A DNA stretch of 64,000 nucleotides from Klebsiella pneumoniae (GCA_945862145.1 CAMAXE010000001.1:388295-452294); one strand, 5' to 3'. Counted from the first letter of the stretch, positions 4,718 to 61,311 are shown. Notes: generated from the letters alone by a model not told the origin. Numbers and translations are program-made.

Positions 4718-4720
4718 GCA

Positions 4721-6250: not shown

Positions 6251-6289
6251 GATCGAGACGCCGACACATCCGCAACGGGAGACACATCG

Positions 6290-7483: not shown

Positions 7484-7500
7484 CGGAGTTTCCTTTCGAA

Positions 7501-8376: not shown

Positions 8377-8382
8377 CTCTCC

Positions 8383-9000
8383 TCAGCGTGGTCGAATGAA
8401 AAGGGCTTCCGCCGAGGCGCAGAGTGCTCCGCCGGCGCTGATCGTCCCGCGGCTACGGACCTTGCGGCCGTCTACCGATACCGTCTCGCCAGAGAGTTCG
8501 AGTTCCTGCTCGATCGGCGTCGGACGGTGGAAACGCACCGTCATCTCACCGGTGAAGGAGCCCGCTCCGTTCAGAAAATTGGTGAGACCCATGATCTCAT
8601 CGAGCGCGGCGGCGACGATGCCTCCGTGTACCGTCTGCGGCGCACCAACGAAGCGCACCGGTATGCTTCCCCTGCCCCGCAGGACCGGCCCGTCGACGCG
8701 GAACTCGAGTCGTGGCGATACCGGGTTGCGTCGACCGATGATCGGGCTCCACGGCATCAGTTCGTGGGGAGCAAGCGCACGCAGATCCTGCGGGAGTCGG
8801 GGATCAAGGCCGCGGGCCGACTGCGAGTGCGGGCCTGCGTGCGCATGCGGCGCGAGCAATGCGAGGGCCTGCTCGAGCCGCGCACGCACGGCCTCGAGGA
8901 CATCCTCGGGGGCATCAGCAATGCGCAGGGCATCCAGCAGGTGCCCGCAACAGGCGCTGGTCTCCTCGACTGCAACGGGATCAGCGCGCAATTCCGACAT
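8383..9000 (-). CDS. PaaI/hotdog-fold thioesterase family protein
   Basis: 205-aa ORF. The C-terminal half contains the hotdog-fold signature TVHGGIVAAALDEIMG followed by beta-rich sequence. Confidence 0.7.
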   Translation of the reverse strand: MSELRADPVAVEETSACCGHLLDALRIADAPEDVLEAVRARLEQALALLAPHAHAGPHSQSARGLDPRLPQDLRALAPHELMPWSPIIGRRNPVSPRLEFRVDGPVLRGRGSIPVRFVGAPQTVHGGIVAAALDEIMGLTNFLNGAGSFTGEMTVRFHRPTPIEQELELSGETVSVDGRKVRSRGTISAGGALCASAEALFIRPR

Positions 9001-9056
9001 TCACAACTCCTTGGAGGCTCGGGCGTGCAGCGTGGCAGCGTTTGCGCCAGCGTTGT

Positions 9057-10004: not shown

Positions 10005-10019
10005 TGGGTCCGCCCGCGG

Positions 10020-10661
10020 CTAGGCTATCAGGGCCCAGGCCAGCAGGCCTGAAACGACACCTACCGCAGCGCTGCGGTAGAGCACGTCGCGGTCGATCTT
10101 GCTCAGTTCCGCGAGCGGATTGCCGCTCACGCGGGTGCGCGACAGGACGGGCCACTCGATGGTGCCCGCGAAAAAGAAGGCGCCGATGGCAGCAGCCACG
10201 ATCATGGCCCGCCCGGCCGTATCGAGAGGGAGCGCCCACCACAGGAGCACCACCGCCAGCGCCCCGCCGATCTGCCCGCCCCAACTCATCGTGAAGAACT
10301 GCGACACGCTGTTGGCGCCAAAATCGTAATTGAAGACGAACAATCCGAGCTGATCGGGAACCGTGTAGCGCGCGCCGGCGAGACGCGCCCCTGCAAAGTG
10401 CCCCCATTCATGGACCAGTGTCCCGAAAACCACACCCGCGGGGATTGCCGCAAGCACCGACAGCCGCGCGGCGGCGCGGAGTCCCGTGACTGCCTGCCAG
10501 GCGTCCGTGGCGGCCCACAGGGACAGCAGTGCCACGCCGGTGAGCACATGTGCGGCAACGAGTTTGATACGGCGGTCGAGGTCGACTGCAGAGGACGTTT
10601 GAGCCGACGCCGCAGAGGTGTCTCCCGTGTGATCGCTGGCAGTTCGCTCGTCTGCGCTCAT
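10020..10661 (-). CDS. small polytopic membrane protein with HExxH motif (M50/site-2-protease-like)
   Basis: The ATG at 10661 (MSADERT...) is preferred over the longest ORF start at 10718. The protein has 5-6 hydrophobic segments, with LVHEWGHFAGARLAG embedded in one TM segment. Confidence 0.6.
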   Translation of the reverse strand: MSADERTASDHTGDTSAASAQTSSAVDLDRRIKLVAAHVLTGVALLSLWAATDAWQAVTGLRAAARLSVLAAIPAGVVFGTLVHEWGHFAGARLAGARYTVPDQLGLFVFNYDFGANSVSQFFTMSWGGQIGGALAVVLLWWALPLDTAGRAMIVAAAIGAFFFAGTIEWPVLSRTRVSGNPLAELSKIDRDVLYRSAAVGVVSGLLAWALIA

Positions 10662-10863
10662 GCATTGACCTCGCTCGCTCGTTAGCCACGACCGCGCACT
10701 GCAGCCGGGACGCCGCACGGTAATATGTTGTTGCCCCTACTGACAACTGCCATCTGTTAACCGCCAACTGCCCGCGCTCGATCAAGGGTTATCCAGAACG
10801 CAGCAGGGGCTATACTTTGGGGCAACCACAAAACGATGAGTGCGAGGGGGGGGGTTGATAGTG

Positions 10864-11691
10864 ATGCGCGGGTGTTGTGTGAGCATCGTGCTCGGCGCGT
10901 TGATGGCGTCCGTGTCCTTCGGCGCTCTGGCGCAGACGAGCCCGGCGCGCAGCCCGTCGGACGCCTATGTGGTATTGCAACGGCTCGGGCTTCTCGAACG
11001 CCCGTCCGCACAACCTGCACCAAGCGCCTCGAGCACTCCCGCACTCGGCATTGAACAGGCCGCCAACGCACCCCTCGTTTCCCGCCCGCTCGAGCCCGTG
11101 CTCGAATCAGCCAGGGCCGCTCCCGTATCCGAGGCGGCCAGCGCGGCCGAGTTGCCCTCAGCCCTCTCCCGGGCCTATGACATGCTGCGCGCCAAGGGGC
11201 TGTTGCCAAGTATTCCCGGCGCGCCCCCGATCCGGAGCACCACGGCACACAAGGGAGCCACGGTCCAGAGCGTGTTGGTCGACAAGTCGGACCGCAAGCT
11301 CTACCTGCTCCGGGACGGCAAGATCTACCGTCAATACGCAATTTCGCTGGGAGCCATGCCGCGTGGAGCCAAACAGCGGGTCGGCGATCTCAAAACCCCG
11401 GAAGGGAACTACACGCTCGATTGGCGCAACCCCAACAGCCGCTTCTACAAATCCATCCATATCTCCTACCCCAACGAGCAAGACCGCCTGCAGGCCGCGC
11501 AGAAGGGCGTCGATCCGGGTGGCGACATCATGATCCACGGCGAGCACTACCTACCGGCACTGAAGCGAGTATTCCGGCGCGCACGCAACAACAGGGACTG
11601 GACCGAGGGCTGCATCGCGCTCAACAACGAATACATTGACGAGATCTGGCGCGAAGTCGCTGACGGCACGCCGATCGAAATACGTCCCTGA
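10864..11691 (+). CDS. L,D-transpeptidase (YkuD-domain) protein
   Basis: The ATG at 10864 gives a signal peptide (MRGCCVSIVLGALMASVSFGALAQ). The C-terminal YkuD domain reads VLVDKSDRKLYLLRDGK...IMIHGE...TEGCIALNN, with the catalytic His and Cys in the expected context. Confidence 0.85.
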   Translation: MRGCCVSIVLGALMASVSFGALAQTSPARSPSDAYVVLQRLGLLERPSAQPAPSASSTPALGIEQAANAPLVSRPLEPVLESARAAPVSEAASAAELPSALSRAYDMLRAKGLLPSIPGAPPIRSTTAHKGATVQSVLVDKSDRKLYLLRDGKIYRQYAISLGAMPRGAKQRVGDLKTPEGNYTLDWRNPNSRFYKSIHISYPNEQDRLQAAQKGVDPGGDIMIHGEHYLPALKRVFRRARNNRDWTEGCIALNNEYIDEIWREVADGTPIEIRP

Positions 11692-21893: not shown

Positions 21894-24062
21894 ATGACAA
21901 AGACTCCCGCAGACCCAGCAGGCGAACCCGGACCGCTCAACGCTTCCACCGATGAACCGGCGGCAGACGCATTGCTCGAGTGCCTGGTGTTCGTCGCCCG
22001 CAGCCACGGCAAACAGGTATCGCGCGACGCCCTGCGCGCAGGGCTCCCGCTGGAAGGGGGGCGCCTGATGCCATCACTGCTGGCCCGGGCTGCCGAGCGA
22101 GCCGCGCTGCAGAGCAGGCTGGTCGAGTGTGCCCTGCCCTCTCTTGAGGCCCCGGTCCTTCCCGCCATACTGCTACTCGAAGAAAGCGCCGCCTGCGTGC
22201 TCATACGGCGCGAGAGCGAGATGTTGGTCATCCACGAACCCGGCAAAGCCGAGAGCCGCTGCACGGCGGCCGCGCTGGCACCTCGCTACAGTGGTACGGC
22301 GGTCCTGCTTGATGCGAGCTTCGAGTTCGACGCCCGCGCTCCGGAAATCCTGCGCAGCCGGGAGCAGCACTGGTTTTGGGGCGCGATGATCGAGAACCTG
22401 CCGCTTTACCGCGATGTGCTCGCCGCGGCGGTCATGATCAACCTGCTGGCCTTGGGGATGCCGATTTTTACCATGAACGTATACGACCGCGTGGTTCCCA
22501 ACCATGCGGTCGAGACGCTCTGGATGCTCGCCGCAGGCTTGGTGATCGTGCTCTGCGCGGATTTTGTCCTGCGTACGATGCGTGCCTTCTTCCTCGATCT
22601 TGCCAGCAAGCGCGTGGATCTTCGCGTGTCGTCGCTGATCATGGAGCGGGTGTTGGGAATGCGCCTCGAAGGGCGCCCGGCATCAGCGGGTTCCTTTGCC
22701 GCGAACCTGCGTTCCTTTGAATCCGTGCGTGACTTCATCACCTCGGCGTCGGTTACCACGCTGGTAGACCTGCCCTTCTCCTTGCTGTTTCTGGTCGTGA
22801 TCGGCTGGATTGCGCCGCTTATGGTGATTCCCGTTCTGGTGGCAACCGCCATCGCAGCAGGCTTCGCAGCCGCATTGGGCGCCAGGATGCACGCCCTGTC
22901 AGAAACGACATACCGCGCAGGCTCCATGCGCAATGCCACGTTAATCGAGAGTCTGGTAGGCCTGGAGACCGTGAAGGCACTGGGTGCAGAGGGCGTTATG
23001 CAGGCGCGCTGGGAGCGCTCGGCGGCCTTCATGGCCCAGACCGGAGCGCGACTGCGGCTCCTCGGCGCCAGCACACTCCACACCGCAATGCTCGCGCAGC
23101 AACTCACAGCCGTTGCCGTGATAATCCTCGGCGTCTACCTCATCACCGACGCCAAACTCTCGCTTGGCGGACTGATCGCCTGCTCAATGCTCGCCGCGCG
23201 GGCAATGGCGCCCATGGGACAGATCGCCGGTCTGATGACCCAGTACCACAATGCGGTCACCGCGATGGCGGCACTCGAGCAGATTGTGTCGCGCCCGGTG
23301 GAACGCCCTGCGGGCGCTCATTTCCTGAGCCGCCAGAGTTTCCGTGGCGACATCGAATTCCGGGATGTGGGATTTTCCTATCCCGGCACGGAGATGAACG
23401 CGCTGCGCGGCGTGAGCCTTCGCATTGCCGCCGGTGACAAGGTGGCGATACTCGGGCGCACCGGCTCTGGCAAGAGCACGCTCCTGCGCCTGATTCTCGG
23501 GCTGTACCGGCCCATCTCGGGCGCCGTGCTGGTCGATGGCATCGATCTGCGACAGCTCGATCCCGCGGAACTCCGTCGCAGCATCGGCTACGTCCCGCAG
23601 GACGTGAACCTGTTCTACGGCACGCTGAGGGATAACGTGAGCCTCGGGACGCCGCAGGTCGAAGACACGGAGATTATCCAGGCACTGCAGGTGGCGAACC
23701 TGACAGATTTCGTGAACCAGCACCCGCGCGGAATCGACATGCCGGTGGGCGAGCGTGGTGAATCACTCTCCGGTGGACAGCGCGAGGGCATCGCCATCGC
23801 CCGCGCAGTGATCAATTCGCCACCGATACTCCTGATGGACGAGCCCACAGGCTCCATGGATCACTCGAGCGAGGAGGCGGTGAAAGTACAGCTGCGCGAG
23901 TACTCCAAGGGGCGCACGGTGGTCATCGTGACGCACCGGACTTCGCTGCTCGATATGGTCGACCGGATCATCGTCGTGGACGCCGGAAAAATAGTGGCGG
24001 ACGGACCCAAAGCAACCGTGGTGGAAGCCTTGCGCCAAGGGCGCATCGGGAAGGGCGTGTGA
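21894..24062 (+). CDS. lapB: type I secretion system ABC transporter (LapB/HlyB-type, N-terminal C39-like domain)
   Basis: 722-aa ORF with an N-terminal C39-like region (LLECLVFVARSHGKQVS), six TM segments, Walker A GRTGSGKST, signature LSGGQREGIAIARA and Walker B ILLMDEPT. Confidence 0.9.
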   Translation: MTKTPADPAGEPGPLNASTDEPAADALLECLVFVARSHGKQVSRDALRAGLPLEGGRLMPSLLARAAERAALQSRLVECALPSLEAPVLPAILLLEESAACVLIRRESEMLVIHEPGKAESRCTAAALAPRYSGTAVLLDASFEFDARAPEILRSREQHWFWGAMIENLPLYRDVLAAAVMINLLALGMPIFTMNVYDRVVPNHAVETLWMLAAGLVIVLCADFVLRTMRAFFLDLASKRVDLRVSSLIMERVLGMRLEGRPASAGSFAANLRSFESVRDFITSASVTTLVDLPFSLLFLVVIGWIAPLMVIPVLVATAIAAGFAAALGARMHALSETTYRAGSMRNATLIESLVGLETVKALGAEGVMQARWERSAAFMAQTGARLRLLGASTLHTAMLAQQLTAVAVIILGVYLITDAKLSLGGLIACSMLAARAMAPMGQIAGLMTQYHNAVTAMAALEQIVSRPVERPAGAHFLSRQSFRGDIEFRDVGFSYPGTEMNALRGVSLRIAAGDKVAILGRTGSGKSTLLRLILGLYRPISGAVLVDGIDLRQLDPAELRRSIGYVPQDVNLFYGTLRDNVSLGTPQVEDTEIIQALQVANLTDFVNQHPRGIDMPVGERGESLSGGQREGIAIARAVINSPPILLMDEPTGSMDHSSEEAVKVQLREYSKGRTVVIVTHRTSLLDMVDRIIVVDAGKIVADGPKATVVEALRQGRIGKGV

Positions 24063-25483
24063 GCGACACCAAGGCGGGCCTTGCGACGCCCCTGATGCGT
24101 CTGCGTTCAGTGTGGAACTGGTGGGTGCGCCTTTGTTCCAGTGTGGTTGGGTGGTTCCTCGGGCCATGGATGGAGCCGGCAAGCGAGCTGCCGCCAGGCT
24201 GGACTACGGATGCCACGATCGCGCGACTCGCCCAGGAGCCGTTGCGGGCTCGAAAGCTGCTGCATGTAACCCTGCTCGTCACGCTGCTCCTTATTCTGTG
24301 GGCAGCGCTCGCGCGCCTCGATGAAGTCACACGCGGCGAGGCGAAAGTGGTCCCTTCACGGCAGATCCAGGTGATCCAGTCGCTCGACGGCGGAATCGTC
24401 TCGAGGATCCACGTGCACGAGGGCGCAATCGTGGAGACCGGGCAGTTGCTGGTGAGCATCGACGCCACGCGCTTCGTGTCCTCGCTGGCCGAAAACCGCG
24501 CCCAGTACCTTTCCCTGCTCGTCAAGACAGAAAGGCTCGCAGCCATCGCCGAAGGCAAGGAGTTCGTGGTTCCCCCCGAGGTGAGCGCCGAGGCGCCGGA
24601 GATCGCAGCCGCAGAAACACGACTTTTCCGCAGCAGCAGCGATGAACTCCAGAGCCAGATCGCCATTGCCACCCAGCAACTGACCCAACGCGAGCAGGAA
24701 CTGCGCGAGGCCAATGCCTTTCTTCAGCAATCGACCCGCAGCCACGACCTCGCGCGGCAGGAACTGCAGCAGACCGAACCGCTGGTCGAATCAGGCGCAG
24801 TCTCCGAGGTCGAGATCCTGCGGCTGAAGCGCGATGTTTCCCGTATGCGCGGCGATCTGGAACAGGCGAGCGCACAAGTCACACGGACACGCTCGGCCAT
24901 CGAGGAAGCGCAACGCAAGCGCGAGCAGGTCGAACTCGACTTCCGCAACGGCATCCGGCGCGAACTCGGCGAAGCCACCTCGCTACTGAACAGCCTTGCC
25001 GCAGGCAGCAGCGGACTGGCCGATCGCGTCCGGCAGGCCGAGGTCCGCTCGCCGGTACGCGGTACGGTGAAGCGGCTGCTCGTTAACACCGAGGGCGGCG
25101 TGGTGCTGCCGGGGCGCGACATCATCGAGATCGTACCCCTTGACGACACCTTGCTCCTCGAGGCCAAGATCGCCCCTCGGGACATCGCTTTCCTGCGGCC
25201 GGGCCAGCCGGCGCTGGTGAAATTCACCGCCTATGACTTCATGATTTACGGCGGCCTGGAGGCAGAACTCGAGAGTATCGGAGCCGATACCATCGCCGAT
25301 GAAGACGGCAACGCCTTCTATCTGGTGCGGGTGCGGACACACCAGCCGACACTCGGCAAGGACCGACCGATCATCCCCGGCATGGTTGCCGAGGTGGACA
25401 TCCTGACCGGTGAAAAAAGCGTGCTAAGCTACCTTATGAAGCCTGTCCTGCGGGCACGGCAGTACGCACTAACAGAGCGATGA
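24059..25483 (+). CDS. lapC: HlyD-family type I secretion membrane fusion protein
   Basis: 474-aa ORF whose GTG start overlaps the lapB stop (GTGA). It has one TM segment, a long coiled-coil middle and the HlyD C-terminal signature (PGMVAEVDILTGEKSVLSYLMKPV). Confidence 0.9.
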   Translation: MSDTKAGLATPLMRLRSVWNWWVRLCSSVVGWFLGPWMEPASELPPGWTTDATIARLAQEPLRARKLLHVTLLVTLLLILWAALARLDEVTRGEAKVVPSRQIQVIQSLDGGIVSRIHVHEGAIVETGQLLVSIDATRFVSSLAENRAQYLSLLVKTERLAAIAEGKEFVVPPEVSAEAPEIAAAETRLFRSSSDELQSQIAIATQQLTQREQELREANAFLQQSTRSHDLARQELQQTEPLVESGAVSEVEILRLKRDVSRMRGDLEQASAQVTRTRSAIEEAQRKREQVELDFRNGIRRELGEATSLLNSLAAGSSGLADRVRQAEVRSPVRGTVKRLLVNTEGGVVLPGRDIIEIVPLDDTLLLEAKIAPRDIAFLRPGQPALVKFTAYDFMIYGGLEAELESIGADTIADEDGNAFYLVRVRTHQPTLGKDRPIIPGMVAEVDILTGEKSVLSYLMKPVLRARQYALTER

Positions 25484-26097
25484 TCCACTCAATATTGATC
25501 GCCACCGACACCGAAGTGCGACAGCGCTGGGAGAAAGCCTTTCCAGGGGCGCCGGTGCACGCAAGCCCCGCCGCCGTTCCGGATCGCGTTGGGCCTGACA
25601 CCGTTGCGTGGCTTCACGTGGGGGCCGACCATGAGGCGGCACGAAGACTCGTTGCGGAGACCTTGGCGGCGATCGGCCCCTGTTCTGTTGTAGCTCTTTC
25701 TGATATTCCCTCTGACGATCAGGCTCTCGAACTGATGGAGCGCGGCGTGGTTGGCTACTGCCACGCCTATGCCGGACCGGCCATGCTGCAACAGGTGAGC
25801 ACGGTGGTTGCTCACCAAGGGCTTTGGGTGGGGCCTGATCTTATGCAGCGTCTGATCCGCGCAGCCGGCGCCAATGTGGCTGTTGACCCGTCATCGAGCA
25901 AGGCACTGGAGACGCTCTCCGGGCGGGAACTGGAGGTCGCGCGCCACGTGGGGACAGGCTCCAGCAACAAAGAGGTTGCCCGTTCGCTCGACATCACCGA
26001 GCGTACGGTCAAGGCGCATCTCAGCTCGATCTTCACCAAACTGGGCGTGCGCGACCGGCTGCATCTGGCGCTGTTCATGCGCTCACAGGGATTCTGA
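25480..26097 (+). CDS. LuxR/CsgD/VpsT-type regulator with atypical receiver-like N-domain
   Basis: 205-aa ORF whose ATG overlaps the lapC stop (ATGA). The C-terminal HTH reads LSGRELEVARHVGTGSSNKEVARSLDITERTVKAHLSSIFTKLGVRDRLHLALF. The N-terminal about 130 aa is receiver-like, but I see no obvious DD...D...K phospho-acceptor pattern. Confidence 0.8.
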   Translation: MIHSILIATDTEVRQRWEKAFPGAPVHASPAAVPDRVGPDTVAWLHVGADHEAARRLVAETLAAIGPCSVVALSDIPSDDQALELMERGVVGYCHAYAGPAMLQQVSTVVAHQGLWVGPDLMQRLIRAAGANVAVDPSSSKALETLSGRELEVARHVGTGSSNKEVARSLDITERTVKAHLSSIFTKLGVRDRLHLALFMRSQGF

Positions 26098-26137: not shown

Positions 26138-28360
26138 CTAATGGGGCCTACGCCAAGGGCCCATGTTTTTTATGGCTCCTCCCACATGTATCGGTCGCGG
26201 CAGTCGGTACGCTTCAGGGAAATCCTTGGACCCGTGAACACGATAGTGGCTGTCGTGAATGAGGACGTGGTCTTTTATGAGAGGCCACACGAACTGCATC
26301 AAAAATGCCTGATCACCAAAGCGGTTTCTTGAATAGACATCCTCTCTCAGGATGGCTTCGCGCACATTGGGCAGGACCCCTGCTACGCCACCCCACATTC
26401 CCGCCAGAATGAGCTCCATATGGTAGATGTGATCACGCATGACGTGGAAAGCCTTGCCCGATCGAATCCACTCCTCTACGGCAAGCAGTTCTTGGGCATT
26501 CACGCGGGAATCCGTATCCCGACACACGAACCAGTCGACCTCAGGATCGTCCGACACAAGGAATCGCCATAGGTGGCGCACGGGAAGAAGCCGCGGATCA
26601 TCAACCATAACAACCTGCGCACCGTTGTACCTCAGCTCCTCCAGTGCATCTGCGGGGACCGACGAGTCACAATAAAAACGCGTTGTCCACCCGTAATACA
26701 TATTCGCGGCGAGCCGAGCATTGACGATGGCGCCATGAACATAGACCGGATCCTGCCCCCAGAGGCTGAAGGAGATGATGTTGCGAGCGGGCTGGAGGTA
26801 GTCGAATGCTCGCGGCTGCGGATCGGGAACCCTCAAGGTGCAGGATGACTTCGCGAAGGCATCACAGGCTATTTTGTCCTTGTGAGCCAATAGGCGGACT
26901 CCCTCTTCGATCGCGAGATCTCTAGTCCCGGATTCCTCCAGAGCAATAACCAACAGGTTATGGGTGGGAATGTCCTCACAGATAGCTAACGAAGCTCGCA
27001 GCGCTTCTATGGCTTCCCTGAAACGACCCAATTCTTTCAGCAGGACGCCGTATAGGCTCCAACCATTGGCAAAGTTGGGCCATGCATCAAGGAGGCGCTG
27101 ATATGCGGCAATTGCAGCGTCGGGTTGATTGGCCTCTTTCAGGGCGACCGCGGCCATGAACACCCCGTCTTGCCGCAGTGGATCCGAGGCCTCGGCCTTC
27201 AGGTATGCATCCGCTGCGCCGGTGAAGTCCTTTAGTGCCCGAAGCGACTGCCCCAACAGATACCATGATTCAAATCCCTGCTGCCCCGCTGCTATTGCCG
27301 TCCTCAGGACCTCTGATGCGCCATGCCAGTCACGGTCGTTACTCCTTTGACGGGCAAGCTGGAGCAGATCGGGAGAAGACGTCAGAGTCGCGTCGACGGC
27401 ATTGTCCGATGGACCTTTCGCGGCCGCTCTTGCTGTGTCTTCAGCGGGAGTCGCCGTCACTGCTGCGGGTACGTCGATCTCGCGGGTGTAACCCAGTTTG
27501 GCGAGGAGATCGCCTGCCTCCGCGTCAAACATGGCACGCGTGTCGGCATCAAAATGATTACGCCAGTCACCGACGATGCCCTTGCGAAAATGGGACTCCA
27601 GACTCTCCTGCCCTCGCTCGCGTCCGCCTGCCAGCGCGCCGAAATTACAGGCAGCCAGACAGTCCTCCACGATATCAATGGAGGAATCCAGACCGAGAAA
27701 ATCAAACACTCGCACCAGTTCAGGTGCAGGGTTCTGGTGGAGATCCTCGTAGCGCAAATGAACGCAAGCCCCGGGATTGCCGGCTGAAAAAGCCATTGCC
27801 CGTTCATAATCCTGCCGCCAAATACTGGCGATGCGCTTGGCATAAGCTGGAAGTGGCTCGGCTTTCTCTGCGCCGTACTGGCGCTTCAGGTGGTACCAGC
27901 CCGACACCGCAATGTCCCGTCCATCGCGACAGATGAACACAAACCTGGCATTTGGAAACAACGTCCTCAGACGCTGGAGCGTACGCAAATGCCCCGGCGT
28001 CTTCTCACCAACGGCCAGCAAGCTGGCATCGTCACCGTACTCGCTAAGAAGCAACATTGCGGCGAAGGCCTGAATAGCCCTGATCGATTCTTCCCGAAAC
28101 GGGGGAAAATGCTCGATCTCGCTGAAAACGTTCTGGTTCAACCCGGATACGAATGCGGAGTAGTCATCGAGCGCCCGACGCAGTTCGGGCCAGAGCTTGG
28201 TCGCGATCTGACCCTCCCCGCGGCAACGGGCTTGAGGGTGATGGTCAAGCAACATCTGCAGCCAAGTGGTCCCGGACTTCTCAGTGCCGGCGACAAAAAA
28301 AATGGTCTTGCCGTCGACCCGGCGGATCTTGTCGAGATACGTTTGGAGCGATGAATTCAT
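26138..28360 (-). CDS. three-module protein: PAPS-dependent sulfotransferase domain + TPR repeats + C-terminal DxD-motif (glycosyltransferase-like) domain
   Basis: 740-aa ORF with no signal peptide. The 5'-PSB loop EKSGTTW (res 27-33) and the 3'-PB motif RDGRDIAVS (res 145-153) are present. TPR-like helical repeats occupy about res 330-500. The C-terminal domain carries DWFVCRDTDSR (D615/D617 = nt 26510-26518) and ILAGMWGG. Confidence 0.85.
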   Translation of the reverse strand: MNSSLQTYLDKIRRVDGKTIFFVAGTEKSGTTWLQMLLDHHPQARCRGEGQIATKLWPELRRALDDYSAFVSGLNQNVFSEIEHFPPFREESIRAIQAFAAMLLLSEYGDDASLLAVGEKTPGHLRTLQRLRTLFPNARFVFICRDGRDIAVSGWYHLKRQYGAEKAEPLPAYAKRIASIWRQDYERAMAFSAGNPGACVHLRYEDLHQNPAPELVRVFDFLGLDSSIDIVEDCLAACNFGALAGGRERGQESLESHFRKGIVGDWRNHFDADTRAMFDAEAGDLLAKLGYTREIDVPAAVTATPAEDTARAAAKGPSDNAVDATLTSSPDLLQLARQRSNDRDWHGASEVLRTAIAAGQQGFESWYLLGQSLRALKDFTGAADAYLKAEASDPLRQDGVFMAAVALKEANQPDAAIAAYQRLLDAWPNFANGWSLYGVLLKELGRFREAIEALRASLAICEDIPTHNLLVIALEESGTRDLAIEEGVRLLAHKDKIACDAFAKSSCTLRVPDPQPRAFDYLQPARNIISFSLWGQDPVYVHGAIVNARLAANMYYGWTTRFYCDSSVPADALEELRYNGAQVVMVDDPRLLPVRHLWRFLVSDDPEVDWFVCRDTDSRVNAQELLAVEEWIRSGKAFHVMRDHIYHMELILAGMWGGVAGVLPNVREAILREDVYSRNRFGDQAFLMQFVWPLIKDHVLIHDSHYRVHGSKDFPEAYRLPRPIHVGGAIKNMGPWRRPH

Positions 28361-28508
28361 TGAGCTCCGCTCAAAGGCTGCAGCAAGGAGCGACGATGAT
28401 ACCTTCCTTACTGAGGGATTGATCGTCCTTCAGTACAGTACATCGCGCGCCGAAGCCCAACTAGACTTCGCCTGAGCCAAATATCCGCCACAGCCGCGGC
28501 AGAGGGTT
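28361..28508. promoter_or_regulatory. shared divergent promoter region (modifying-enzyme gene / adhesin gene)
   Basis: 148-bp gap between two divergent start codons, relatively AT-rich for this window (for example CTTCCTTACTGAGGGATTGATCGTCCTTCAGTACAGTACATC). I could not confidently assign a specific -35/-10 pair. Confidence 0.4.
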
Positions 28509-31145
<2,637 letters not shown>

Positions 31146-31561: not shown

Positions 31562-33505
31562 TCAGCCTGTCTGCTCCGGTCGTTGGGTAACCGCCGGACC
31601 GGTAACGCCGTCAAAGCCGAGTTCCAACAGCGCCGCGATTTCCGCCTCGGAACGCGCGCCCTCGCCAATGGCGCTCAAGCCGATCGAATGGGCAATGATC
31701 GCAAGCCCGCGCAGGAAGACCTGGTTTGAGGGATTCTGCTCGAGGTCGTGTACGAAGGAGGCATCGATCTTCATGTAGTCGAGCCCGAGATCGTGGAGTT
31801 GCCCGATTCGCGAGACCTGATGCCCTACGTGCTCGATGCCCAGCTTGCAACCTGCCGGTTTCAACAGCGCGCAGAGGATGCGGAATTGCTCGAGATTCTG
31901 GAATACGCCGTGCTCCGGAACCTCCATCCACAAACGCTGCGAGAGCTGCGGCTCGGCCGCGAGGCGCAGTGCGATTCGGTGCAGCAGCATAGGGTCGTTC
32001 ATGGCTTGAGCGGAGAGGTTCACACAAAGCGCATCCGCGCCATGGCGCATACGCTCCAACGCAAGGTCAATGACGATTTCGTCGAGTCGCGGACCATAAC
32101 CCAGTCGCGAAACCCATGGCATGAACTCCCCCGCTGCGAGCCAGTCTCCATCCGGGCGCAGCCGCAGCCGTGCAACGCATTCCGCATGCAGAACGGCGCC
32201 CTTGGCATCGATGACCGGATAGCTCTGGAGCTTGACCCATCCTGACGCCAATGCCTCATCGAGTTGCCGGCCCCACGTCGCGAGGTCGGCCGCCTTCAAT
32301 GCCCCGAGCACTCCGGACTGGTCGCCCGTTGCTACCTGGACAGGATCAGCATTCTCGGCGCATGCCGACGCCAGAGCGGCATCAACGCGCGCCAGCACGG
32401 CGCCTAATTTTTCATCGAAGCGGTAGGCCGTCGCCGCGGTCGGCATCCGGCATACCTCATCGAGATTCAATTCACGCGTCAGCATGAGCATGGCATCGTG
32501 TACGCTCCGGGCCAGAGCCAGCGCATCGTCGCCAGCAGGCACCAATACAGCAAAGTCAGAGCCGTTCAGTCTGCCGAGGACCCATTCAGACCCCTCCGGC
32601 GACATCGCACGCAGGGCCTCGGCGAAGCGCTTGATGAAGGTATCGATCACCGCCCACCCTTGCGTGCGGTTAAGTTCGTTCAGATCCAGCAGCCGGGCGA
32701 TCACCACGACACCGTGCGCGCTCTCGTCGTCACGCTCCAGAAGGGCTTGGAGGCGTGCGATGAAGTGGCTGCGATTCAGCAGCCCCGACACGCGATCGTA
32801 GTGCGCCTCCCGGCGTAGCATATCCAGCCGCAGCGACTCCTCCTCCAACATATGGCGCACACGCTTGGCCAGCGTGTTCATGGATCGCACCACCGCCTGG
32901 AACTCACGGGTGCCCGGCTCTCGCGTGGTGATGAATCGCCGCGCACCGATCGCCTCGGCCTGCGTCACCACGTCATCGAGGGGGCGCAGGATCACCCGCA
33001 GCAACAACGTCCCCGCAAGCCCCGCCAGCAACGAGACGCCGAGGAACCAGCCCAACAGACGGATGCTGCCGGCCCACAGCGAGGTGTAGGCAAAGCGCGT
33101 GTGGCTGGCGAGTTCGAGGGTGCCGTATTGTTTCCACCCGTCCTGAACCTGCGCGACGCCCGGCGCAACGTCTATGCGCAGCATGCGGCGAAACCAGTCG
33201 GGAGCACCGAGTTCCCGGTTGTCGCTTCTCTGCTCCGCGATCACGGCGCCGCGCGGATCGCTAAGTCGGATGTACTCGTAATTCCCCAGATCGAACTGCG
33301 AGGACACCAGCAAACCGACCTCAACGGGATCCTTGGACATCTGCCCGAGTACGGAGGCGAGCGAGTTAGCGTTGTCGAGGTTCTTCAGGGCAAGCTGTTC
33401 CTCGAGGTAGTTCTTAGCCGAGAGGCTGCTGACCAGAAAGCTACCGCCAAAACCGATCACCATCAGAAGCGCGATCGCCAGCCACAGTTGCCGTATCAGT
33501 GACAT
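31562..33505 (-). CDS. lapD: LapD-type inner-membrane c-di-GMP receptor (LapD_MoxY_N periplasmic domain, HAMP, degenerate GGDEF and EAL)
   Basis: The ATG at 33505 gives MSLIRQLWLAIALLMVIGFGGSFLVSSLSAKNYLEEQLALKNLDNANSLA, the typical LapD N-terminus. The periplasmic loop reads QVQDGWKQYG. The GGDEF position reads RLNGSDF (degenerate) and the EAL position reads ECV (degenerate). Confidence 0.9.
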   Translation of the reverse strand: MSLIRQLWLAIALLMVIGFGGSFLVSSLSAKNYLEEQLALKNLDNANSLASVLGQMSKDPVEVGLLVSSQFDLGNYEYIRLSDPRGAVIAEQRSDNRELGAPDWFRRMLRIDVAPGVAQVQDGWKQYGTLELASHTRFAYTSLWAGSIRLLGWFLGVSLLAGLAGTLLLRVILRPLDDVVTQAEAIGARRFITTREPGTREFQAVVRSMNTLAKRVRHMLEEESLRLDMLRREAHYDRVSGLLNRSHFIARLQALLERDDESAHGVVVIARLLDLNELNRTQGWAVIDTFIKRFAEALRAMSPEGSEWVLGRLNGSDFAVLVPAGDDALALARSVHDAMLMLTRELNLDEVCRMPTAATAYRFDEKLGAVLARVDAALASACAENADPVQVATGDQSGVLGALKAADLATWGRQLDEALASGWVKLQSYPVIDAKGAVLHAECVARLRLRPDGDWLAAGEFMPWVSRLGYGPRLDEIVIDLALERMRHGADALCVNLSAQAMNDPMLLHRIALRLAAEPQLSQRLWMEVPEHGVFQNLEQFRILCALLKPAGCKLGIEHVGHQVSRIGQLHDLGLDYMKIDASFVHDLEQNPSNQVFLRGLAIIAHSIGLSAIGEGARSEAEIAALLELGFDGVTGPAVTQRPEQTG

Positions 33506-33543
33506 CCCGTCGTCCTCCGTTAGGATCAGGCTTGTGCCGTGCA

Positions 33544-34254
33544 TCAGTTTAGGCCGTCCGCGGACATACGGCTAAGTAGATCGCGCCAGCGCGAAAGTCG
33601 CGCCGTGGGGGCTGCAACGGAAGGCCCCCGATTACCGGCAACCCACAACCCCTCGCTGTTAAAGCCGAACACCGGGCGAAGATCAGGGCGGCGCGATGCC
33701 GGCCGAAGCGCGCTCACGAGGTTGTCCAGCACCAAGGGTTCAGCGTCCGGGGTCGCGTAGTAGGCAAGCACCATATGGGCCTGACTGATGCCGCTGCCGG
33801 CCCTGCCAAGTTCTGCCCGCACATAGGTAATACGAAGCCGCTCGATCGGCACACCCAGCATGCCGAGCGAGACGTACTTGCCTATGCTGTAATCCTCGCA
33901 GTCGCCTTCACCGCGCCCCAGCGTCTCCAGCGGGGTTGCCCAGTAATCGGGCAGATTCCAGACGACCTGATCGTCTTCAAACGCCACGCGGCTATTAAAA
34001 AACGCATTTACGAGTTGGAGTTTTTCGGGTTCGGACAGCGACTTGCCGGTCTCGAGCATGCTGCGCCAGGCACGGAGGGTTTCTTCGCCCTGTGCGCCGT
34101 AGCGCTCCTGCGCAAGGCGCACGATGTGATCGAAGTCCGGAGCAGCCGCCGCCGCGACGACGAACACCAGCCCCACGCAGGTTGCAGAGACGAATGCCTT
34201 CACACGGAGCACCCGTGGAAGCACCCATGCTGCAAAGCGACGGGAATGGGCCAT
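33544..34254 (-). CDS. lapG: LapG-type periplasmic transglutaminase-like cysteine protease (BTLCP/DUF920)
   Basis: The ATG at 34254 gives a signal peptide (MAHSRRFAAWVLPRVLRVKAFVSATCVGLVFVVAAAAAP). GEGDCEDYSIGKY carries the catalytic Cys, and downstream HMVLAYY...VLDNL supplies the His/Asp context typical of LapG. Confidence 0.9.
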   Translation of the reverse strand: MAHSRRFAAWVLPRVLRVKAFVSATCVGLVFVVAAAAAPDFDHIVRLAQERYGAQGEETLRAWRSMLETGKSLSEPEKLQLVNAFFNSRVAFEDDQVVWNLPDYWATPLETLGRGEGDCEDYSIGKYVSLGMLGVPIERLRITYVRAELGRAGSGISQAHMVLAYYATPDAEPLVLDNLVSALRPASRRPDLRPVFGFNSEGLWVAGNRGPSVAAPTARLSRWRDLLSRMSADGLN

Positions 34255-34394
34255 ACTCAATATGATGATTCGCGTGTACGGCTTCGTTGCATGCGTCGGG
34301 ACCGGCTGGCTAACACCCTGAGGGGAATATATAGTTGCTGGATCTCGACGACGTGTCGGAGAACTTGTTGGCAAGTATCGGGGACCGTTTGCTG

Positions 34395-35963
34395 ATGATC
34401 AAGAAAACCCTGTGCAAGGCCAGTGCGGCTCTGGTGGTCTGTGCGGTGGCGCAGGCTGCTCCTGTGCCGGGCGTCCAAGGCACTTTGAAGGATGCTGCGC
34501 GCCAAGCCGTGATGGAGAATCCCGAGGTCCTGGGCGCATGGCATGAGTACGAGGCCGCCACGGAGCAAACGCAAGTCGCAAAGGGTGGTTATCTGCCAAC
34601 GGTGGATCTCGAGGCAGGCATCGGCGAAGAGCGCATCGATGACCCCCGCTTTGCCCAGAACACATTTAACCGTGACCGCGTCTCGGTCTCGCTTAGTCAG
34701 ATGCTGTTTGACGGGTTTCGCACCCGCAACGAAGTTCGCCGCCTTAACCATGCTGCCCGCACCCGCTACTACGAAGTGCTGGAGGCATCCGAGCAGGCGG
34801 CTGCCGAAACCGCCCGCGCCTACATTGATGTCCTGCGCCATCGCGGCTTGGTCGAGCTATCCGAGGAAAACTACGCAACCCACCGCCTGATCTACGACCA
34901 GATCGAGCGCCGGGTCCGGGCCGGGGTCAGCCGCCGTGTGGATCTTGAGCAGGCCTCCGGGCGTCTCGCACTCTCGGAGTCTAACCTGCTTACCGACGTG
35001 ACCAATCTGCATGACGTCAGCATGCGCTACCAGCGCGTGGTTGGGGAAATACCCGCAACCGGTCTGGAAGAGCCGAAAATCGCTGCGGGCTTGGTGCCCG
35101 GGAACATCAAGGACACCCTGCTCGCCGCCTACACAAACAGCCCCCTCATGAACGCGGCAATCGCAAACATGTGGTCGGCCGAAGCGGCAACCGACGTTGC
35201 CAAGGCGGCTTTCGTGCCGCGCTTTGATTTCCAGGCACGCCAGGACGTCTGGCACGACAGATACGATCTCGACGGCCGCTACGAGGAAGGCGTGATCGAA
35301 CTCGTGATGCGCTACAACCTGTTCAATGGCGGCTCCGACTCCGCCGAGAAACGTCGTCTGATCGAGAAGACCTACCAGTCCCTCGATATCCGCGACAAGA
35401 CCTGCCGGGACATCCGCCAGGAGGTGAGCATCGCGTGGAACAACACGCGACGCCTCGAGGAGCAGAAAAGCTATCTTGACCGCCATCAACTCGCCATCGA
35501 AAAGGCGCGCGAGGCCTACAAACGCCAGTTCGATATTGGCCAGCGTACCCTGCTCGATATTCTCGACACCGAGAACGAGTACTACGAGGCGCGGCGCGCG
35601 TACCTGGACGCCGACCGCGACCACACCATCTCCTACGCCAGGACCCTGGCGGGGAGCGGCAAGCTGGTTGCCGCCCTTGAGCTCGGCCCAGAACTGCACG
35701 TCATGGAACTGCCACCCGGCTACGACAAGCAGAATCCGGATATGTACGCGGTCTGCCCTCAAGAGAGCGACGCGGCGATGTCGATCGACAAGGAAAAGGT
35801 GTTCCGGGACGCGATGCAGAAGCGCGGCTATATGCAGGCCCCGACGCCGGGTCCTGCAGGACCGGAGCCGTACATGAAAGGCGGCCCGGCGCCGGACGCT
35901 ATCGGCACGCCAAAGACGGAAACACCGGCAACCGAAGAGCCGCCTGTTCCCCCCAAGTGGTGA
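34395..35963 (+). CDS. lapE: TolC-family type I secretion outer-membrane protein
   Basis: The ATG at 34395 gives a signal peptide (MIKKTLCKASAALVVCAVAQA). Two TolC repeat halves are present (GGYLPTVDLEAGIG..., PRFDFQARQD...), and there is a Pro-rich C-terminal tail. The gene is divergent from lapG. Confidence 0.9.
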   Translation: MIKKTLCKASAALVVCAVAQAAPVPGVQGTLKDAARQAVMENPEVLGAWHEYEAATEQTQVAKGGYLPTVDLEAGIGEERIDDPRFAQNTFNRDRVSVSLSQMLFDGFRTRNEVRRLNHAARTRYYEVLEASEQAAAETARAYIDVLRHRGLVELSEENYATHRLIYDQIERRVRAGVSRRVDLEQASGRLALSESNLLTDVTNLHDVSMRYQRVVGEIPATGLEEPKIAAGLVPGNIKDTLLAAYTNSPLMNAAIANMWSAEAATDVAKAAFVPRFDFQARQDVWHDRYDLDGRYEEGVIELVMRYNLFNGGSDSAEKRRLIEKTYQSLDIRDKTCRDIRQEVSIAWNNTRRLEEQKSYLDRHQLAIEKAREAYKRQFDIGQRTLLDILDTENEYYEARRAYLDADRDHTISYARTLAGSGKLVAALELGPELHVMELPPGYDKQNPDMYAVCPQESDAAMSIDKEKVFRDAMQKRGYMQAPTPGPAGPEPYMKGGPAPDAIGTPKTETPATEEPPVPPKW

Positions 35964-37524: not shown

Positions 37525-39189
37525 ATGTCTGATGAGAACGCCAGCTGGAAACAGCGCTACGAGTTTGCACTCGAGGCGATAGAGCGCAATGCCAAGGACC
37601 ACCGTGACTTCACGCAGGAACTCGTCCGGGCATTGAACCGACTCTCGCTCGCCGCCGAGGGTCAGGATCCAGAGCTCGACCACGAGCTACGTGACTTGCG
37701 CGCCTTCCTGCGCCTGAAGACCCTCTCGCGCGACGTGCTGGCGAGCAAGCTGGACGTTCTGGAGGAGCAACTGCGCACGGTGGCGCGCCGCGACCACGCT
37801 ATCGACAAGCGGGTCGCGACGGCCATCAATAGCCTGCTCGGCCAGGTGGAAGCAGTCAGACCGGGCCGCGAAACCCTGCGCGCCGCACAACTCCTGCGCC
37901 GCGAGATGCGCACGCTGGATCCCCTCGACGTGCTGGCGCGTGCCGTCGCCCTGCAAGCCGGGATCAAGCCGTCGCGCGAGACCGCTGATGCTGCTCATGC
38001 GCCCGGGTTGCTCGACCGGCTGTTCCGACAACACGCCATCGTGGCCGCGGCCACCCCACCCGCCGCCAACGGCGCAGTGGCACAGAGTGCACTCAGTGAA
38101 GCAGACGAGGCTGCAGCGGATGCGTCCCTTGGTGAGGCCGCCATCACGACCCTGCGCGTTCTGCTCGAGGCGCTTGCTCCACAGAAAAGCAATCCCCGCC
38201 TGCACGCCGCTTATGTGTCTGCCACGGAGCGGATCTCAAGCGAGGTGACGCTGGCGAAAATGGGATCGCTGCTCGACGAGCTCCTGCTGCTCTCGCGGGG
38301 TGCACTCCAGCAGTGTCGGCAGGAGTTTTCGGATTTCCTCGAGCAGCTGAGTTCACGTCTGGTTACGGCGGCTGAGGGCATCGCCGAGGGTGGAGATCTT
38401 GATGCCGAGCGCCGCAGCAACAGCGAAGCGCTGAATGACGCGATGCGCGCCGGGATCGATCACATTCACCGTGAGATATCTGGCTCCCGTGACCTGCAGG
38501 TCTTGAAGCAGGAGGTGAACACCCGGCTCGAGGGCATCGGAGAGGCCTTCCAGTCGTTCCGCCAGCAAGAGGAACGCATCGGCGCCCAGACCGCCAGCGG
38601 GGCGCGGGCACTGGCCGAGCGCGTGATCGAACTGCAGCAGAAAACTCGCTCTGCAGAGCTCGTTATCGAGGAGCAGCGCCGGCTCGCGAACACGGACACT
38701 CTCACCCGGCTTCCCAACCGCGAGGCATGGGCTGTGCGCCTGCAGCAGGAGCACGAGCGCTCCCAGCGTTACCGGCGGCCGCTGGCCATGGCCATTTGCG
38801 ATATTGATCGATTCAAGGACGTCAACGATCGTTTCGGCCATGCCGTTGGTGATGGCGTGCTGCGTGCGGTGAGTGATTGCCTGGCCCATGCGCTGCGCAA
38901 AACGGATTTCGTGGCCCGATTCGGCGGCGAGGAATTCGTATTCCTGCTCCCGGAGACGACCCCCGAGCAGGCTGCGGCAGCACTCGAAAAAGTGCGCATG
39001 GCAATTGCTGCGCTGTCGATGGATATCGGCGCCCGTAAGGGCATCACGGTAACTGCATCCTTTGGCGTCGCCGGATTCACCGAGGAGGATGCACCGGACC
39101 GGGTGTTCAGCCGCGCCGACGCTGCTCTTTACCAGGCAAAAGATGCCGGCCGGGATAAGGTGGTTGTGTACTCCGCAGCGACGCTCTGA
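37525..39189 (+). CDS. diguanylate cyclase (GGEEF) with long N-terminal helical/coiled-coil region
   Basis: 554-aa ORF. The active site GGEEF lies at nt 38923-38937 and the I-site RKTD sits five residues upstream (38896-38907). GGDEF-domain strings DTLTRLPNREAW and DIDRFKDVNDRFGH are present. I see no TM segments in the first about 380 aa. Confidence 0.9.
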   Translation: MSDENASWKQRYEFALEAIERNAKDHRDFTQELVRALNRLSLAAEGQDPELDHELRDLRAFLRLKTLSRDVLASKLDVLEEQLRTVARRDHAIDKRVATAINSLLGQVEAVRPGRETLRAAQLLRREMRTLDPLDVLARAVALQAGIKPSRETADAAHAPGLLDRLFRQHAIVAAATPPAANGAVAQSALSEADEAAADASLGEAAITTLRVLLEALAPQKSNPRLHAAYVSATERISSEVTLAKMGSLLDELLLLSRGALQQCRQEFSDFLEQLSSRLVTAAEGIAEGGDLDAERRSNSEALNDAMRAGIDHIHREISGSRDLQVLKQEVNTRLEGIGEAFQSFRQQEERIGAQTASGARALAERVIELQQKTRSAELVIEEQRRLANTDTLTRLPNREAWAVRLQQEHERSQRYRRPLAMAICDIDRFKDVNDRFGHAVGDGVLRAVSDCLAHALRKTDFVARFGGEEFVFLLPETTPEQAAAALEKVRMAIAALSMDIGARKGITVTASFGVAGFTEEDAPDRVFSRADAALYQAKDAGRDKVVVYSAATL

Positions 39190-61309: not shown

Positions 61310-61311
61310 GC

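Follow-up and report, generated by a model that had tools for sequence, protein, structure and literature searches.

A predicted sulfotransferase-TPR-glycosyltransferase fusion enzyme encoded beside a threonine-rich LapA-type adhesin

In a 64,000-nucleotide stretch of an assembly listed as Klebsiella pneumoniae (GCA_945862145.1, CAMAXE010000001.1:388295-452294), a gene for a predicted three-domain enzyme lies divergent from the gene for a LapA-type adhesin. We will call the whole stretch, at its full length, the window. An initial annotation of the window had described the enzyme as a fusion of a sulfotransferase, a block of tetratricopeptide repeats (TPRs), and a third domain with a DxD motif, and had proposed that it sulfates and/or glycosylates the adhesin in the cytoplasm before export by LapBCE. 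Here we examine the enzyme, the adhesin, and the loci of the enzyme's relatives. The features of the two genes, with coordinates in the window, are:

26138..28360, minus strand: fusion-enzyme gene (open reading frame, Pfam, full-length AlphaFold2 model), product predicted to be cytoplasmic
27476..28360, minus strand: sulfotransferase domain, residues 1-295 (Pfam, alignment to TPST2, Foldseek)
28262-28282, minus strand: 5'-phosphosulfate-binding motif EKSGTTW, residues 27-33
27902-27928, minus strand: 3'-phosphate-binding motif RDGRDIAVS, residues 145-153
27377..27469, minus strand: disordered inter-domain linker, residues 298-328 (predicted local distance difference test, or pLDDT, under 50)
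26849..27367, minus strand: TPR block, residues 332-504, modelled by AlphaFold2 as ten helices with about five TPR motifs
26141..26848, minus strand: predicted GT-A-fold domain (undescribed family), residues 505-740, with its core at 527-740
26510-26518, minus strand: invariant DxD, D615-T-D617 (alignment, AlphaFold2)
28361..28508, no strand: divergent intergenic region between enzyme and adhesin, 148 bp, with a conserved block shared with a sister locus
28509..31145, plus strand: adhesin of LapA type, exported by a type I secretion system (T1SS), presumed substrate, 878 amino acids (NCBIfam retention_LapA and T1SS target domain)
28533..28946, plus strand: N-terminal retention module, residues 9-146 (NF033682, E = 7.5e-36, 123.5 bits, cut-off 50)
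29004..29417, plus strand: tract of 46 copies of TTP, the presumed modification target, residues 166-303 (138 residues, 92 threonines)
30840..31136, plus strand: T1SS C-terminal secretion domain, residues 778-876 (TIGR03661, E = 3e-14)

The enzyme's open reading frame (ORF) runs from an ATG to a stop codon and encodes 740 amino acids: the sulfotransferase is at the N-terminus, followed by the linker, the TPR block, and the GT-A-like domain. The protein has no signal peptide or transmembrane segment (the highest Kyte-Doolittle mean over 19 residues is 1.35). This agrees with the initial annotation, whose other readings of the protein we also recovered. The two motifs for binding 3'-phosphoadenosine 5'-phosphosulfate (PAPS) are exactly where it had placed them, its two TPR strings were found from residues 366 and 433 onward, and its RDTDSR string, which holds the DxD, starts at residue 614. 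The full-length AlphaFold2 model has a pLDDT of 89.1 and a predicted TM score (pTM) of 0.58. Several Pfam TPR families cover residues ~331-490, and the TPR block matches the TPRs of OGT and SPY (SPINDLY) in the PDB. The enzyme's gene has the lowest G+C content of the locus (57.1%, and 63% at third codon positions, versus 61-66% and 66-81% for its neighbors), which hints at a separate, possibly horizontal, origin.

The adhesin's retention-module region contains TAAG, a candidate di-alanine site for LapG, and after the TAAG comes a poly-Gly linker. The TTP tract, in which the initial annotation had counted 92 threonines, is exactly 46 perfect copies. Its DNA is built from 7 different, synonymous 9-nucleotide units: the repeats match at 84% as DNA and are 100% identical as peptide. 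This implies that the tract is maintained as a peptide and not as a DNA repeat. The number of copies varies among assemblies of the same gene, from 46 in the window to 25 in locus L001 (9133-9357), at least 36 in L002 (5-328), and 19 in L003 (23-193). These differences could be either real length polymorphism or assembly collapse.

The spacer between the two start codons is 148 bp, as previously annotated, with the adhesin's ATG at 28509. A promoter scan of this spacer found no match to the sigma-70 consensus. When we compared the spacer (28361-28508) to that of a sister locus that is 74% identical (L088, 651-778), we found a conserved block, GTACTGTAC..AAGG.CGATCAATC..CCT.AG, plus a AGTCTAGT box, while the rest has diverged. 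The block may be a regulator's site, such as for the LuxR-family protein that is encoded nearby.

Residues 21-285 of the enzyme match two Pfam families above their curated cut-offs: Sulfotransfer_3 (PF13469, E = 3e-31, 109.7 bits, cut-off 27) and Sulfotransfer_1 (PF00685, E = 3e-26, 92.6 bits, cut-off 22). Given these profiles and the two binding motifs, the domain can be assigned by sequence to the PAPS-dependent sulfotransferase superfamily. It also aligns to the tyrosylprotein sulfotransferase (TPST) TPST2 over residues 19-293 (E = 1.2e-14). The alignment places K28, E49, K120, and R145 on R78, E99, K158, and R183 of TPST2 (numbering and roles as in its published structure), and E49 is the putative catalytic base. 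The top Foldseek matches of the domain are TPSTs as well (8w5z, 5wri, and 3ap1, TMt 0.56-0.67). Neither the PAPS motifs nor any of these four residues vary among 15 fused homologs. The domain thus has the sequence features of a PAPS enzyme that is competent, and members of its class are able to act on polypeptides. A tblastn search of the window with the adenosine 5'-phosphosulfate (APS) kinase of locus L005 found no gene for PAPS synthesis, so the cysC function must be encoded elsewhere in the genome.

The C-terminal part of the enzyme (residues 495-740) has no match in Pfam (down to E = 1), in NCBIfam, or among PDB sequences, and in a profile search of the PDB, only the TPR columns matched. 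The initial annotation had recommended checking this part for a GT-A fold. The AlphaFold2 model of residues 495-740, from an alignment of 83 sequences, has a pLDDT of 95.1 and a pTM of 0.93, and it matches solved GT-A enzymes. Its best Foldseek match in the PDB is glycogenin (E = 7e-6, TM ~0.5), followed by Skp1 alpha-galactosyltransferase, the catalytic domain of UGGT, and GpgS; all four have a probability of 1.00. There were 115 PDB matches at E ≤ 1e-3, and among the 50 matches listed, nearly all were GT-A glycosyltransferases (from families GT8, GT24, and GT81, with TM ~0.5). Glycogenin and the Skp1 enzyme, the closest, are retaining GT8 enzymes, and most of the four named here are retaining. 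The DTD motif lies directly after a core beta-strand (residues 610-613), and GT-A enzymes place their DxD just after a core beta-strand. D615 and D617 are invariant both in the 83-sequence set and in a set of 41 sequences; R614, H639, R642, D643, H647, D683, Q684, H702, D703, H725, and G727 are also invariant in the 83-sequence alignment. From the model, we confidently predict that the C-terminal domain has a GT-A fold.

Two described families were considered for this domain and set aside. For GT8 (the family of glycogenin, LgtC, and WaaJ), Glyco_transf_8 gave no match at E ≤ 1, and hhalign with the profile of the domain's family gave probabilities of 0.35% for WaaJ and 0.12% for WaaO, although this is a weak test that used single sequences from E. 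coli and not a GT8 profile. GT41 (OGT, SPY, and HMW1C) is ruled out because the modelled catalytic domain is GT-A instead of GT-B; only the TPR part of the enzyme matches OGT and SPY. The enzyme does not belong to GT4 either. The domain therefore appears to be GT8-like in its modelled fold, yet a member of an undescribed family by sequence profile. So the GT-A domain with a DxD that the initial annotation had suggested is upheld, but the domain has no sequence-level place in any described glycosyltransferase (GT) family.

The family is very large. A word-indexed search found 763 homologs of the C-terminal domain, and among representatives of clusters at 50% identity, there were 4,928 family members at E ≤ 1e-3 and 835 at E ≤ 1e-30. 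Most of these are proteins of 380-430 amino acids with a short TPR block and the GT domain. (Some sources label the TPR-GT proteins as "OGT-like," evidently because of the TPRs.) Among 38 longer members, the domains fused to the GT domain were TPRs (30), FkbM-type methyltransferases (4), sulfotransferases (3), GT9 (2), and GT2 (1). These partners are typical of the building or tailoring of glycans, which provides independent support for a role as a glycosyltransferase. Some members (P0201, P0203, P0204, P0206, P0207, and P0231) have two copies of the GT-A-like domain or are fused to FkbM, GT2, or GT9. The combination of TPRs and the GT domain is a common, widespread, and ancestral module, and the sulfotransferase is an add-on in a subset of the family. 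In other words, the three parts that were initially annotated are all present, but they are not on an equal footing: the sulfotransferase is accessory to a widespread TPR-GT core.

The pattern of conservation speaks to whether this protein is an enzyme at all. It might instead be a catalytically silent chaperone or secretion adaptor, whose TPRs and degenerate enzyme domains would only keep the repetitive tract unfolded for export by the T1SS. Elsewhere, TPR proteins do act as secretion chaperones, and NCBIfam reports a weak match of the enzyme to TIGR02552 (LcrH/SycD). But strict invariance among homologs down to 40-45% identity is seen in the PAPS motifs, in the DxD, in the Glu and Lys of the catalytic site, and in several His and Asp residues, and we consider a silent adaptor to be very improbable.

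Full-length homologs with all three parts (57-74% identity) are found in metagenome-assembled genomes (MAGs) of Methylococcaceae, Methyloversatilis, and Gallionella, and on several metagenome contigs. The window itself has a counterpart in the MAG GCA_947446145.1, and its nearest relatives are MAGs of Gallionella, Methylococcaceae, and Methyloversatilis. Six independent lineages of the fused enzyme have readable flanks, and in all six, the same locus contains T1SS genes along with an ORF whose product has a TTP or PTV tract. One of the six is the window; the others are:

L004/L009: (PTT)17+ running into the contig end; double ABC, HlyD, and OEP
L005/L010: (TTP)8+ at the contig end; adjoining APS kinase and GT2
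L006/L007: LapG, LapD, and the enzyme, followed by a convergent ORF ending ...TPTTPTTPTEPN... with a T1SS C-terminal target domain
L008 (Gallionella): (TPT)48 and then (DS)23, in a tract protein at 3-1118
L088: divergent arrangement and retention module as in the window, with the tract (PTV)14+; HlyD is 87% and ABC is 79% identical to the window's

The contigs often end inside the tract, as one would expect of short-read assembly. The initial annotation had suggested checking what the fused architecture co-varies with, and the answer is T1SS substrates with threonine tracts, not polysaccharide loci. The (DS)23 of L008 is a run of Ser-Asp that resembles the repeats of the staphylococcal Sdr and Clf adhesins, and the protein has weak matches to models for SdrC, SdrD, and ClfA. 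The staphylococcal repeats are glycosylated by SdgA and SdgB.

The same clade of sulfotransferases is combined with the GT in three ways. It can be N-terminal to the TPR-GT module (as in the window), C-terminal to it (P0021, P0022, and P0027), or encoded by a separate gene directly upstream of the TPR-GT gene (L024, L041, L042, and L090). In three of these four loci with a split sulfotransferase, a giant protein with PTDPTT, PTVPTD, or PTVPTT repeats is encoded downstream. In P0028, a member of the clade is fused to an unrelated GT (PF11397). More distant relatives of the sulfotransferase (45% identity or less) are stand-alone proteins with no tract nearby. The repeated fusion of sulfotransferase and GT, in both orders, argues that both activities serve one pathway.

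To examine the TPR-GT proteins that lack the sulfotransferase, we surveyed 80 loci from GTDB genomes (out of 437 genomic relatives found) and, as controls, 78 loci (0.61 Mb) around stand-alone relatives of the sulfotransferase. When a threonine tract was strictly defined as 6 or more perfect copies, one was present in 15 of 80 GT loci, versus 0 of 78 controls. For loci that are 8 kb or longer, the counts were 15/74 and 0/32 (P = 0.005, Fisher exact test). By manual inspection, about 35 of the 80 GT loci have a tract or a giant adhesin. For instance, the TPR-GT gene adjoins tracts of 31-88 copies of PTD, in proteins with the BapA prefix, in Roseovarius; PTDPT-type tracts in Paracoccaceae; (EPTDPA)24 in Roseinatronobacter; and (PSD)17, beside HlyD and ABC genes, in Rhodospirillum. 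Many Rhodospirillales encode a giant adhesin (over 3,000 amino acids) with Cadherin/Big_9 domains directly downstream of the TPR-GT, and at residues ~170-400 these adhesins have tracts of TDA (30 copies), PTDATT (21 copies), TVPTDA, PTDPTT, TQATDP, or ATQATE. Across these neighboring proteins, the tract lies at about residues 120-400. In the Verrucomicrobiales, the order of genes is a giant Cadherin/Big_9 adhesin, the GT, ABC, and HlyD; the adhesins' N-termini are outside of the loci, so any tract is unreadable.

The neighbors of the TPR-GT genes carry a BapA prefix, arrays of Cadherin or Big_9 domains, RTX repeats, or a T1SS C-terminal target domain. The presumed substrates have N-termini of at least three unrelated classes: the LapA retention module, the BapA prefix, and an acidic leader with ILD[DE]L[TS]. 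The adhesive parts differ as well; across alpha-, beta-, and gammaproteobacteria, nothing but the threonine tract is constant.

The acidic leader occupies the first ~40 residues, follows the pattern MAE[ED]D[IV]N.N...EEDEEDNE...[QR][RK]ILD[DE]L[TS]QF, and is unrelated to the retention module or to the BapA prefix. It is found in the tract ORFs of L004/L009, L005, most of L027-L057, and L090 (from Rhodospirillales, Methylococcaceae, and Methyloversatilis), and it might serve for docking or secretion. In L087 (1-8022), and also in L066, L069, L074, L079, L081, and L085, an ORF with Big_9, Cadherin, and VWA domains runs into the TPR-GT region with no stop codon between them in that frame. This arrangement in the Verrucomicrobiales could be either a true fusion of adhesin and enzyme or tightly packed genes. 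In L169 (Tabrizicola sp. TH137, 270-11245), a LapG-like protease, a separate TPR-sulfotransferase, and a 499-amino-acid protein with a Pro/Thr/Ser tract are encoded within 10 kb of the TPR-GT. This TPR-sulfotransferase is just 24% identical to the window's sulfotransferase, and an operon for resistance-nodulation-division (RND) efflux is inserted among these genes. L014 and L052, also from Rhodobacterales, are similar.

Among four tracts of fused enzymes, the content of Asp plus Glu is 1%, 1%, ~5%, and 12% (the last from L008, owing to its (DS)23). In comparison, it is 8-31% in tracts of sulfotransferase-less enzymes and 13-14% in the loci with a split sulfotransferase. Across these few lineages, an association between acid-poor tracts and the presence of a sulfotransferase is suggestive only.

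The conserved surroundings of the relatives are the decisive evidence for the enzyme's role. We think it probable that the enzyme is a cytoplasmic, bifunctional, protein-modifying enzyme that is dedicated to the neighboring LapA-type adhesin. Modification of the adhesin before export by LapBCE, as initially proposed, is supported by the GT-A fold and by the co-variation of enzyme and tract, and it remains a prediction.

A variant of this proposal, which we consider unlikely, is that both domains act on the polypeptide: the GT would modify some of the threonines, and the sulfotransferase would modify other threonines or Tyr306, and not a sugar. This would fit with the similarity to TPSTs, which extends across the full domain (E = 1e-14) and to the aligned catalytic Glu. 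Also, TTP has two threonines where the PTD of the sulfotransferase-less systems has Thr and Asp, and sulfo-Thr could replace the Asp; and proteins with TPRs and a sulfotransferase, and no GT, are common. But L088 pairs a fused enzyme with (PTV)n, which has one hydroxyl per repeat. Because of L088, we downgraded the idea that the second Thr of TTP is sulfated in place of the Asp of PTD. As for tyrosine, TPSTs act on Tyr in an acidic context, and there is no Tyr within the 138-residue tract; the first is Tyr306 (in TTYPPT), whose flanks are non-acidic. We know of no dedicated enzyme for the O-sulfation of threonine. Finally, the sulfotransferase clade is repeatedly fused or adjacent to a GT, including the PF11397 protein, and the GT domain's other partners are glycan-tailoring enzymes. 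For these reasons (the lack of a second hydroxyl in L088's tract, the sulfotransferase traveling with the GT, and the nature of the GT's other partners), we favor a sugar as the sulfate acceptor.

Alternatively, the enzyme might make or tailor a sulfated glycan, such as an exopolysaccharide, lipopolysaccharide, or small glycoconjugate, and might merely be co-regulated with the adhesin during biofilm formation. GT-A folds and Sulfotransfer_3 are common in the pathways for polysaccharides and lipo-oligosaccharides, the enzyme has a weak NoeE-like match in NCBIfam (E = 1.6e-4), some of the homologous loci have an extra GT2, and about half of the TPR-GT loci lack an adhesin in the surrounding 10 kb. 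Nevertheless, we found no genes for polysaccharide export or polymerization in the window or in the loci of the fused homologs, so a role in polysaccharide synthesis is unsupported by gene content. Furthermore, the TPR block is a protein-binding module, and adjacency to a threonine tract recurs in three classes of proteobacteria despite the unrelated N-termini and adhesive domains. We consider a glycan product quite improbable, and we return to the protein-modifying enzyme that is dedicated to the adhesin.

The other genes of the adhesin system surround the enzyme and adhesin genes, with lapB, lapC, and luxR upstream and with lapD, lapG, and lapE downstream, past the adhesin:

21894..24062, plus strand: LapB-like T1SS ABC transporter with an N-terminal C39-like domain (Pfam ABC_tran, ABC_membrane, Peptidase_C39)
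24059..25483, plus strand: LapC-like membrane fusion protein of the HlyD family (Pfam HlyD_3)
25480..26097, plus strand: LuxR/GerE-family regulator, convergent with the enzyme gene (Pfam GerE)
31562..33544, minus strand: LapD, cyclic di-GMP receptor (Pfam LapD_MoxY_N, HAMP, GGDEF, EAL)
33544..34374, minus strand: LapG, periplasmic cysteine protease (Pfam Peptidase_C93)
34335..35963, plus strand: LapE, outer-membrane channel of the TolC family (TIGR01844, 263 bits)

The true start of lapG is probably downstream of the listed TTG (its counterpart in L001 is called as 236 amino acids). With a retention module, a C-terminal secretion signal, a C39-like ABC transporter, a membrane fusion protein, a TolC-like outer-membrane protein, LapD, and LapG, the locus encodes, by sequence, a complete Lap-type T1SS adhesin system. 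Between the convergent luxR and enzyme genes, and overlapping the enzyme's last codons, is a GC-rich hairpin followed by a run of T (26144-26162), which may be a terminator for the luxR/lapBC transcript. Two genes past lapE, a diguanylate cyclase with DGCcoil and GGDEF domains (37525-39189) may supply cyclic di-GMP to LapD. Farther away, at 53351-62541, the window encodes subunits of an NAD-dependent formate dehydrogenase (FdsD-like, molybdopterin alpha, and Nuo51-like beta) and a pair of a zinc alcohol dehydrogenase and an esterase that resembles formaldehyde detoxification. These genes fit with a C1-utilizing beta- or gammaproteobacterium.

How might the enzyme modify the adhesin? PAPS and nucleotide sugars are cytoplasmic. 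T1SS substrates, such as HlyA and LapA/MpIBP, are exported unfolded and C-terminus first, and LapA's retention module remains on the periplasmic side of the channel in the outer membrane. In all of the substrates that we observed, the tract is close to the N-terminus. With this direction of export, a tract near the N-terminus would dwell in the cytoplasm the longest, and could be modified there before export by LapBCE. We propose that the TPR block would hold the unfolded N-terminal region of the adhesin, and that the GT-A domain would use a nucleotide sugar and a metal bound by the DxD to O-glycosylate the threonines of (TTP)46, an acceptor suggested by the conserved neighborhood. Across the family, the target might be Thr in [P/A]-T-x triplets. 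An alpha linkage is our guess, from the similarity to retaining GT8 enzymes. The sulfotransferase would then use PAPS to add sulfate, most likely onto the attached sugar.

A polyproline-II helix has three residues per turn, so in a tract with a period of three residues, the threonine side chains, and hence the glycans, would be aligned along the faces of the helix. The result would be a mucin-like stalk, stiff and polyanionic, located immediately distal to the retention module, and it would project the adhesive part of the protein past the cell envelope. We estimate that the stalk would be about 40 nm long (138 residues at ~0.31 nm each). The sulfate would supply the negative charge that Asp and Glu supply in the systems that lack the sulfotransferase.

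A broader reading, which we put forward tentatively as a real possibility, is that the TPR and GT-A family as a whole (~4,900 clusters, with no Pfam model) writes a "mucin code" by O-glycosylating period-3 threonine tracts near the N-termini of giant adhesins that are secreted by T1SS, in alpha-, beta-, and gammaproteobacteria and in Verrucomicrobia. In the window, the fused TPST-like sulfotransferase would turn a neutral (TTP)n into a sulfated glycopeptide brush. If so, this would be the first sulfated bacterial glycoprotein adhesin, and the first evidence of a T1SS exporting a densely glycosylated and sulfated polypeptide.

Several points weigh against these proposals. The links from enzyme to substrate are all guilt by association, and roughly half of the 80 TPR-GT loci (such as Gemmobacter L170) have neither a tract nor an adhesin within 10 kb. 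L024 has the split sulfotransferase and the GT, yet has no tract. The tract protein of the Tabrizicola type has an N-terminus that resembles a Sec signal peptide. The GT domain resembles known GTs at the level of fold (TM ~0.5), without a sequence-level family, and TPSTs are the closest solved relatives of the sulfotransferase, in sequence as well as in fold, so its acceptor could be a polypeptide instead of a sugar. The geometry between the domains is modelled without confidence (as the pTM of the full-length model indicates), and because the position of the sulfotransferase relative to the rest is not fixed by the model, we make no claim about channeling between the active sites. The link between tract charge and the sulfotransferase comes from few lineages, with no phylogenetic correction. 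Lastly, the passage of a densely glycosylated chain through a T1SS is not known to us to have been demonstrated. SwmA of marine Synechococcus, which contains RTX repeats, is a glycoprotein that is exported by a T1SS-like transporter; it would be a precedent for a glycosylated T1SS cargo, without a defined enzyme or tract.

If the proposals are correct, they add a new layer of post-translational modification to the Lap, RTX, and BapA adhesins, which are central to biofilm formation. They would also explain what a very large, unannotated GT-A family does, and what the common but so far unexplained low-complexity Thr/Pro/Asp tracts of giant adhesins are for. The fused enzyme would be a bacterial counterpart, in a single polypeptide, of mucin O-glycosylation and sulfation, and might be usable in glyco-engineering. 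There is also a testable question about what the type I secretion channel can carry. For annotation, it is useful to know that these tracts break short-read assemblies and that the adjacent enzymes are now mislabelled as "TPR protein" or "OGT-like."

To our knowledge, the Lap, RTX, and BapA systems studied so far have been treated as unmodified proteins. The initial annotation knew of no Lap or RTX adhesin system with such a partner. Likewise, in the literature that we searched, which included few of the subscription-journal papers, we found no report of a glycosylated or sulfated Lap, RTX, or BapA adhesin or of an enzyme like the window's. The window's system resembles LapA/LapBCE/LapD/LapG of Pseudomonas fluorescens in its retention module, di-alanine region, C39-like ABC transporter, membrane fusion protein, TolC-like outer-membrane protein, LapD, and LapG. 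It differs in that, within the same literature, neither a modifying enzyme nor a threonine tract is reported for P. fluorescens LapA or MapA.

Dedicated cytoplasmic glycosyltransferases are known for other adhesins: HMW1C for HMW1 (in Haemophilus), TibC for TibA, Aah for AIDA-I, and EtpC for EtpA. As we predict here, a soluble cytoplasmic GT is encoded beside its adhesin and modifies it before export. However, those enzymes belong to GT41, which N-glycosylates Asn, or are GT9-like heptosyltransferases, and their substrates are two-partner-secretion proteins or autotransporters that are exported via Sec. Here, we have an undescribed GT-A family, a Lap-type adhesin with a T1SS, a period-3 threonine tract, and a fused sulfotransferase.

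Repeat stalks are O-glycosylated in the cytoplasm by GTs from the same locus in the serine-rich repeat proteins (GtfA and GtfB) and in the Ser-Asp repeats of ClfA and the Sdr proteins (SdgA and SdgB). But these are Gram-positive systems with GT-B enzymes (GT4-type) and export by Sec or accessory Sec, and they involve neither TPRs nor sulfation. OGT, SPY (both GT41), and FlmG of Caulobacter also have a TPR superhelix N-terminal to a GT that modifies Ser or Thr of proteins in the cytoplasm. In contrast to the enzyme of the window, OGT and SPY have GT-B catalytic domains, OGT is a general regulator, and none of the three has a sulfotransferase.

RaxST is a PAPS-dependent protein sulfotransferase (PMC4216712, PMC4892823). 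In the RaxST-RaxX-RaxABC and HlyC-HlyA systems, a cytoplasmic modifier is encoded with a T1SS and the substrate is exported after its modification, as we propose for the adhesin. But RaxST adds sulfate to just one Tyr in a small peptide, and HlyC acylates Lys, whereas here the proposed target is a threonine tract of 138 residues and the proposed modification is sulfation coupled to glycosylation.

The mucin O-glycosylation of eukaryotes, by ppGalNAc-T (GT27) and the sulfotransferases of the Golgi, has the elements that we propose for the window's enzyme: dense O-glycosylation of Pro/Thr-rich tandem repeats, a GT-A enzyme of the retaining type, sulfation from PAPS, and an extended polyanionic brush as the product. 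The eukaryotic pathway differs in that it is luminal (in the Golgi) and uses separate membrane enzymes, and there is no homology beyond the fold class. In the window, both activities are predicted to reside in one cytoplasmic polypeptide of a bacterium.

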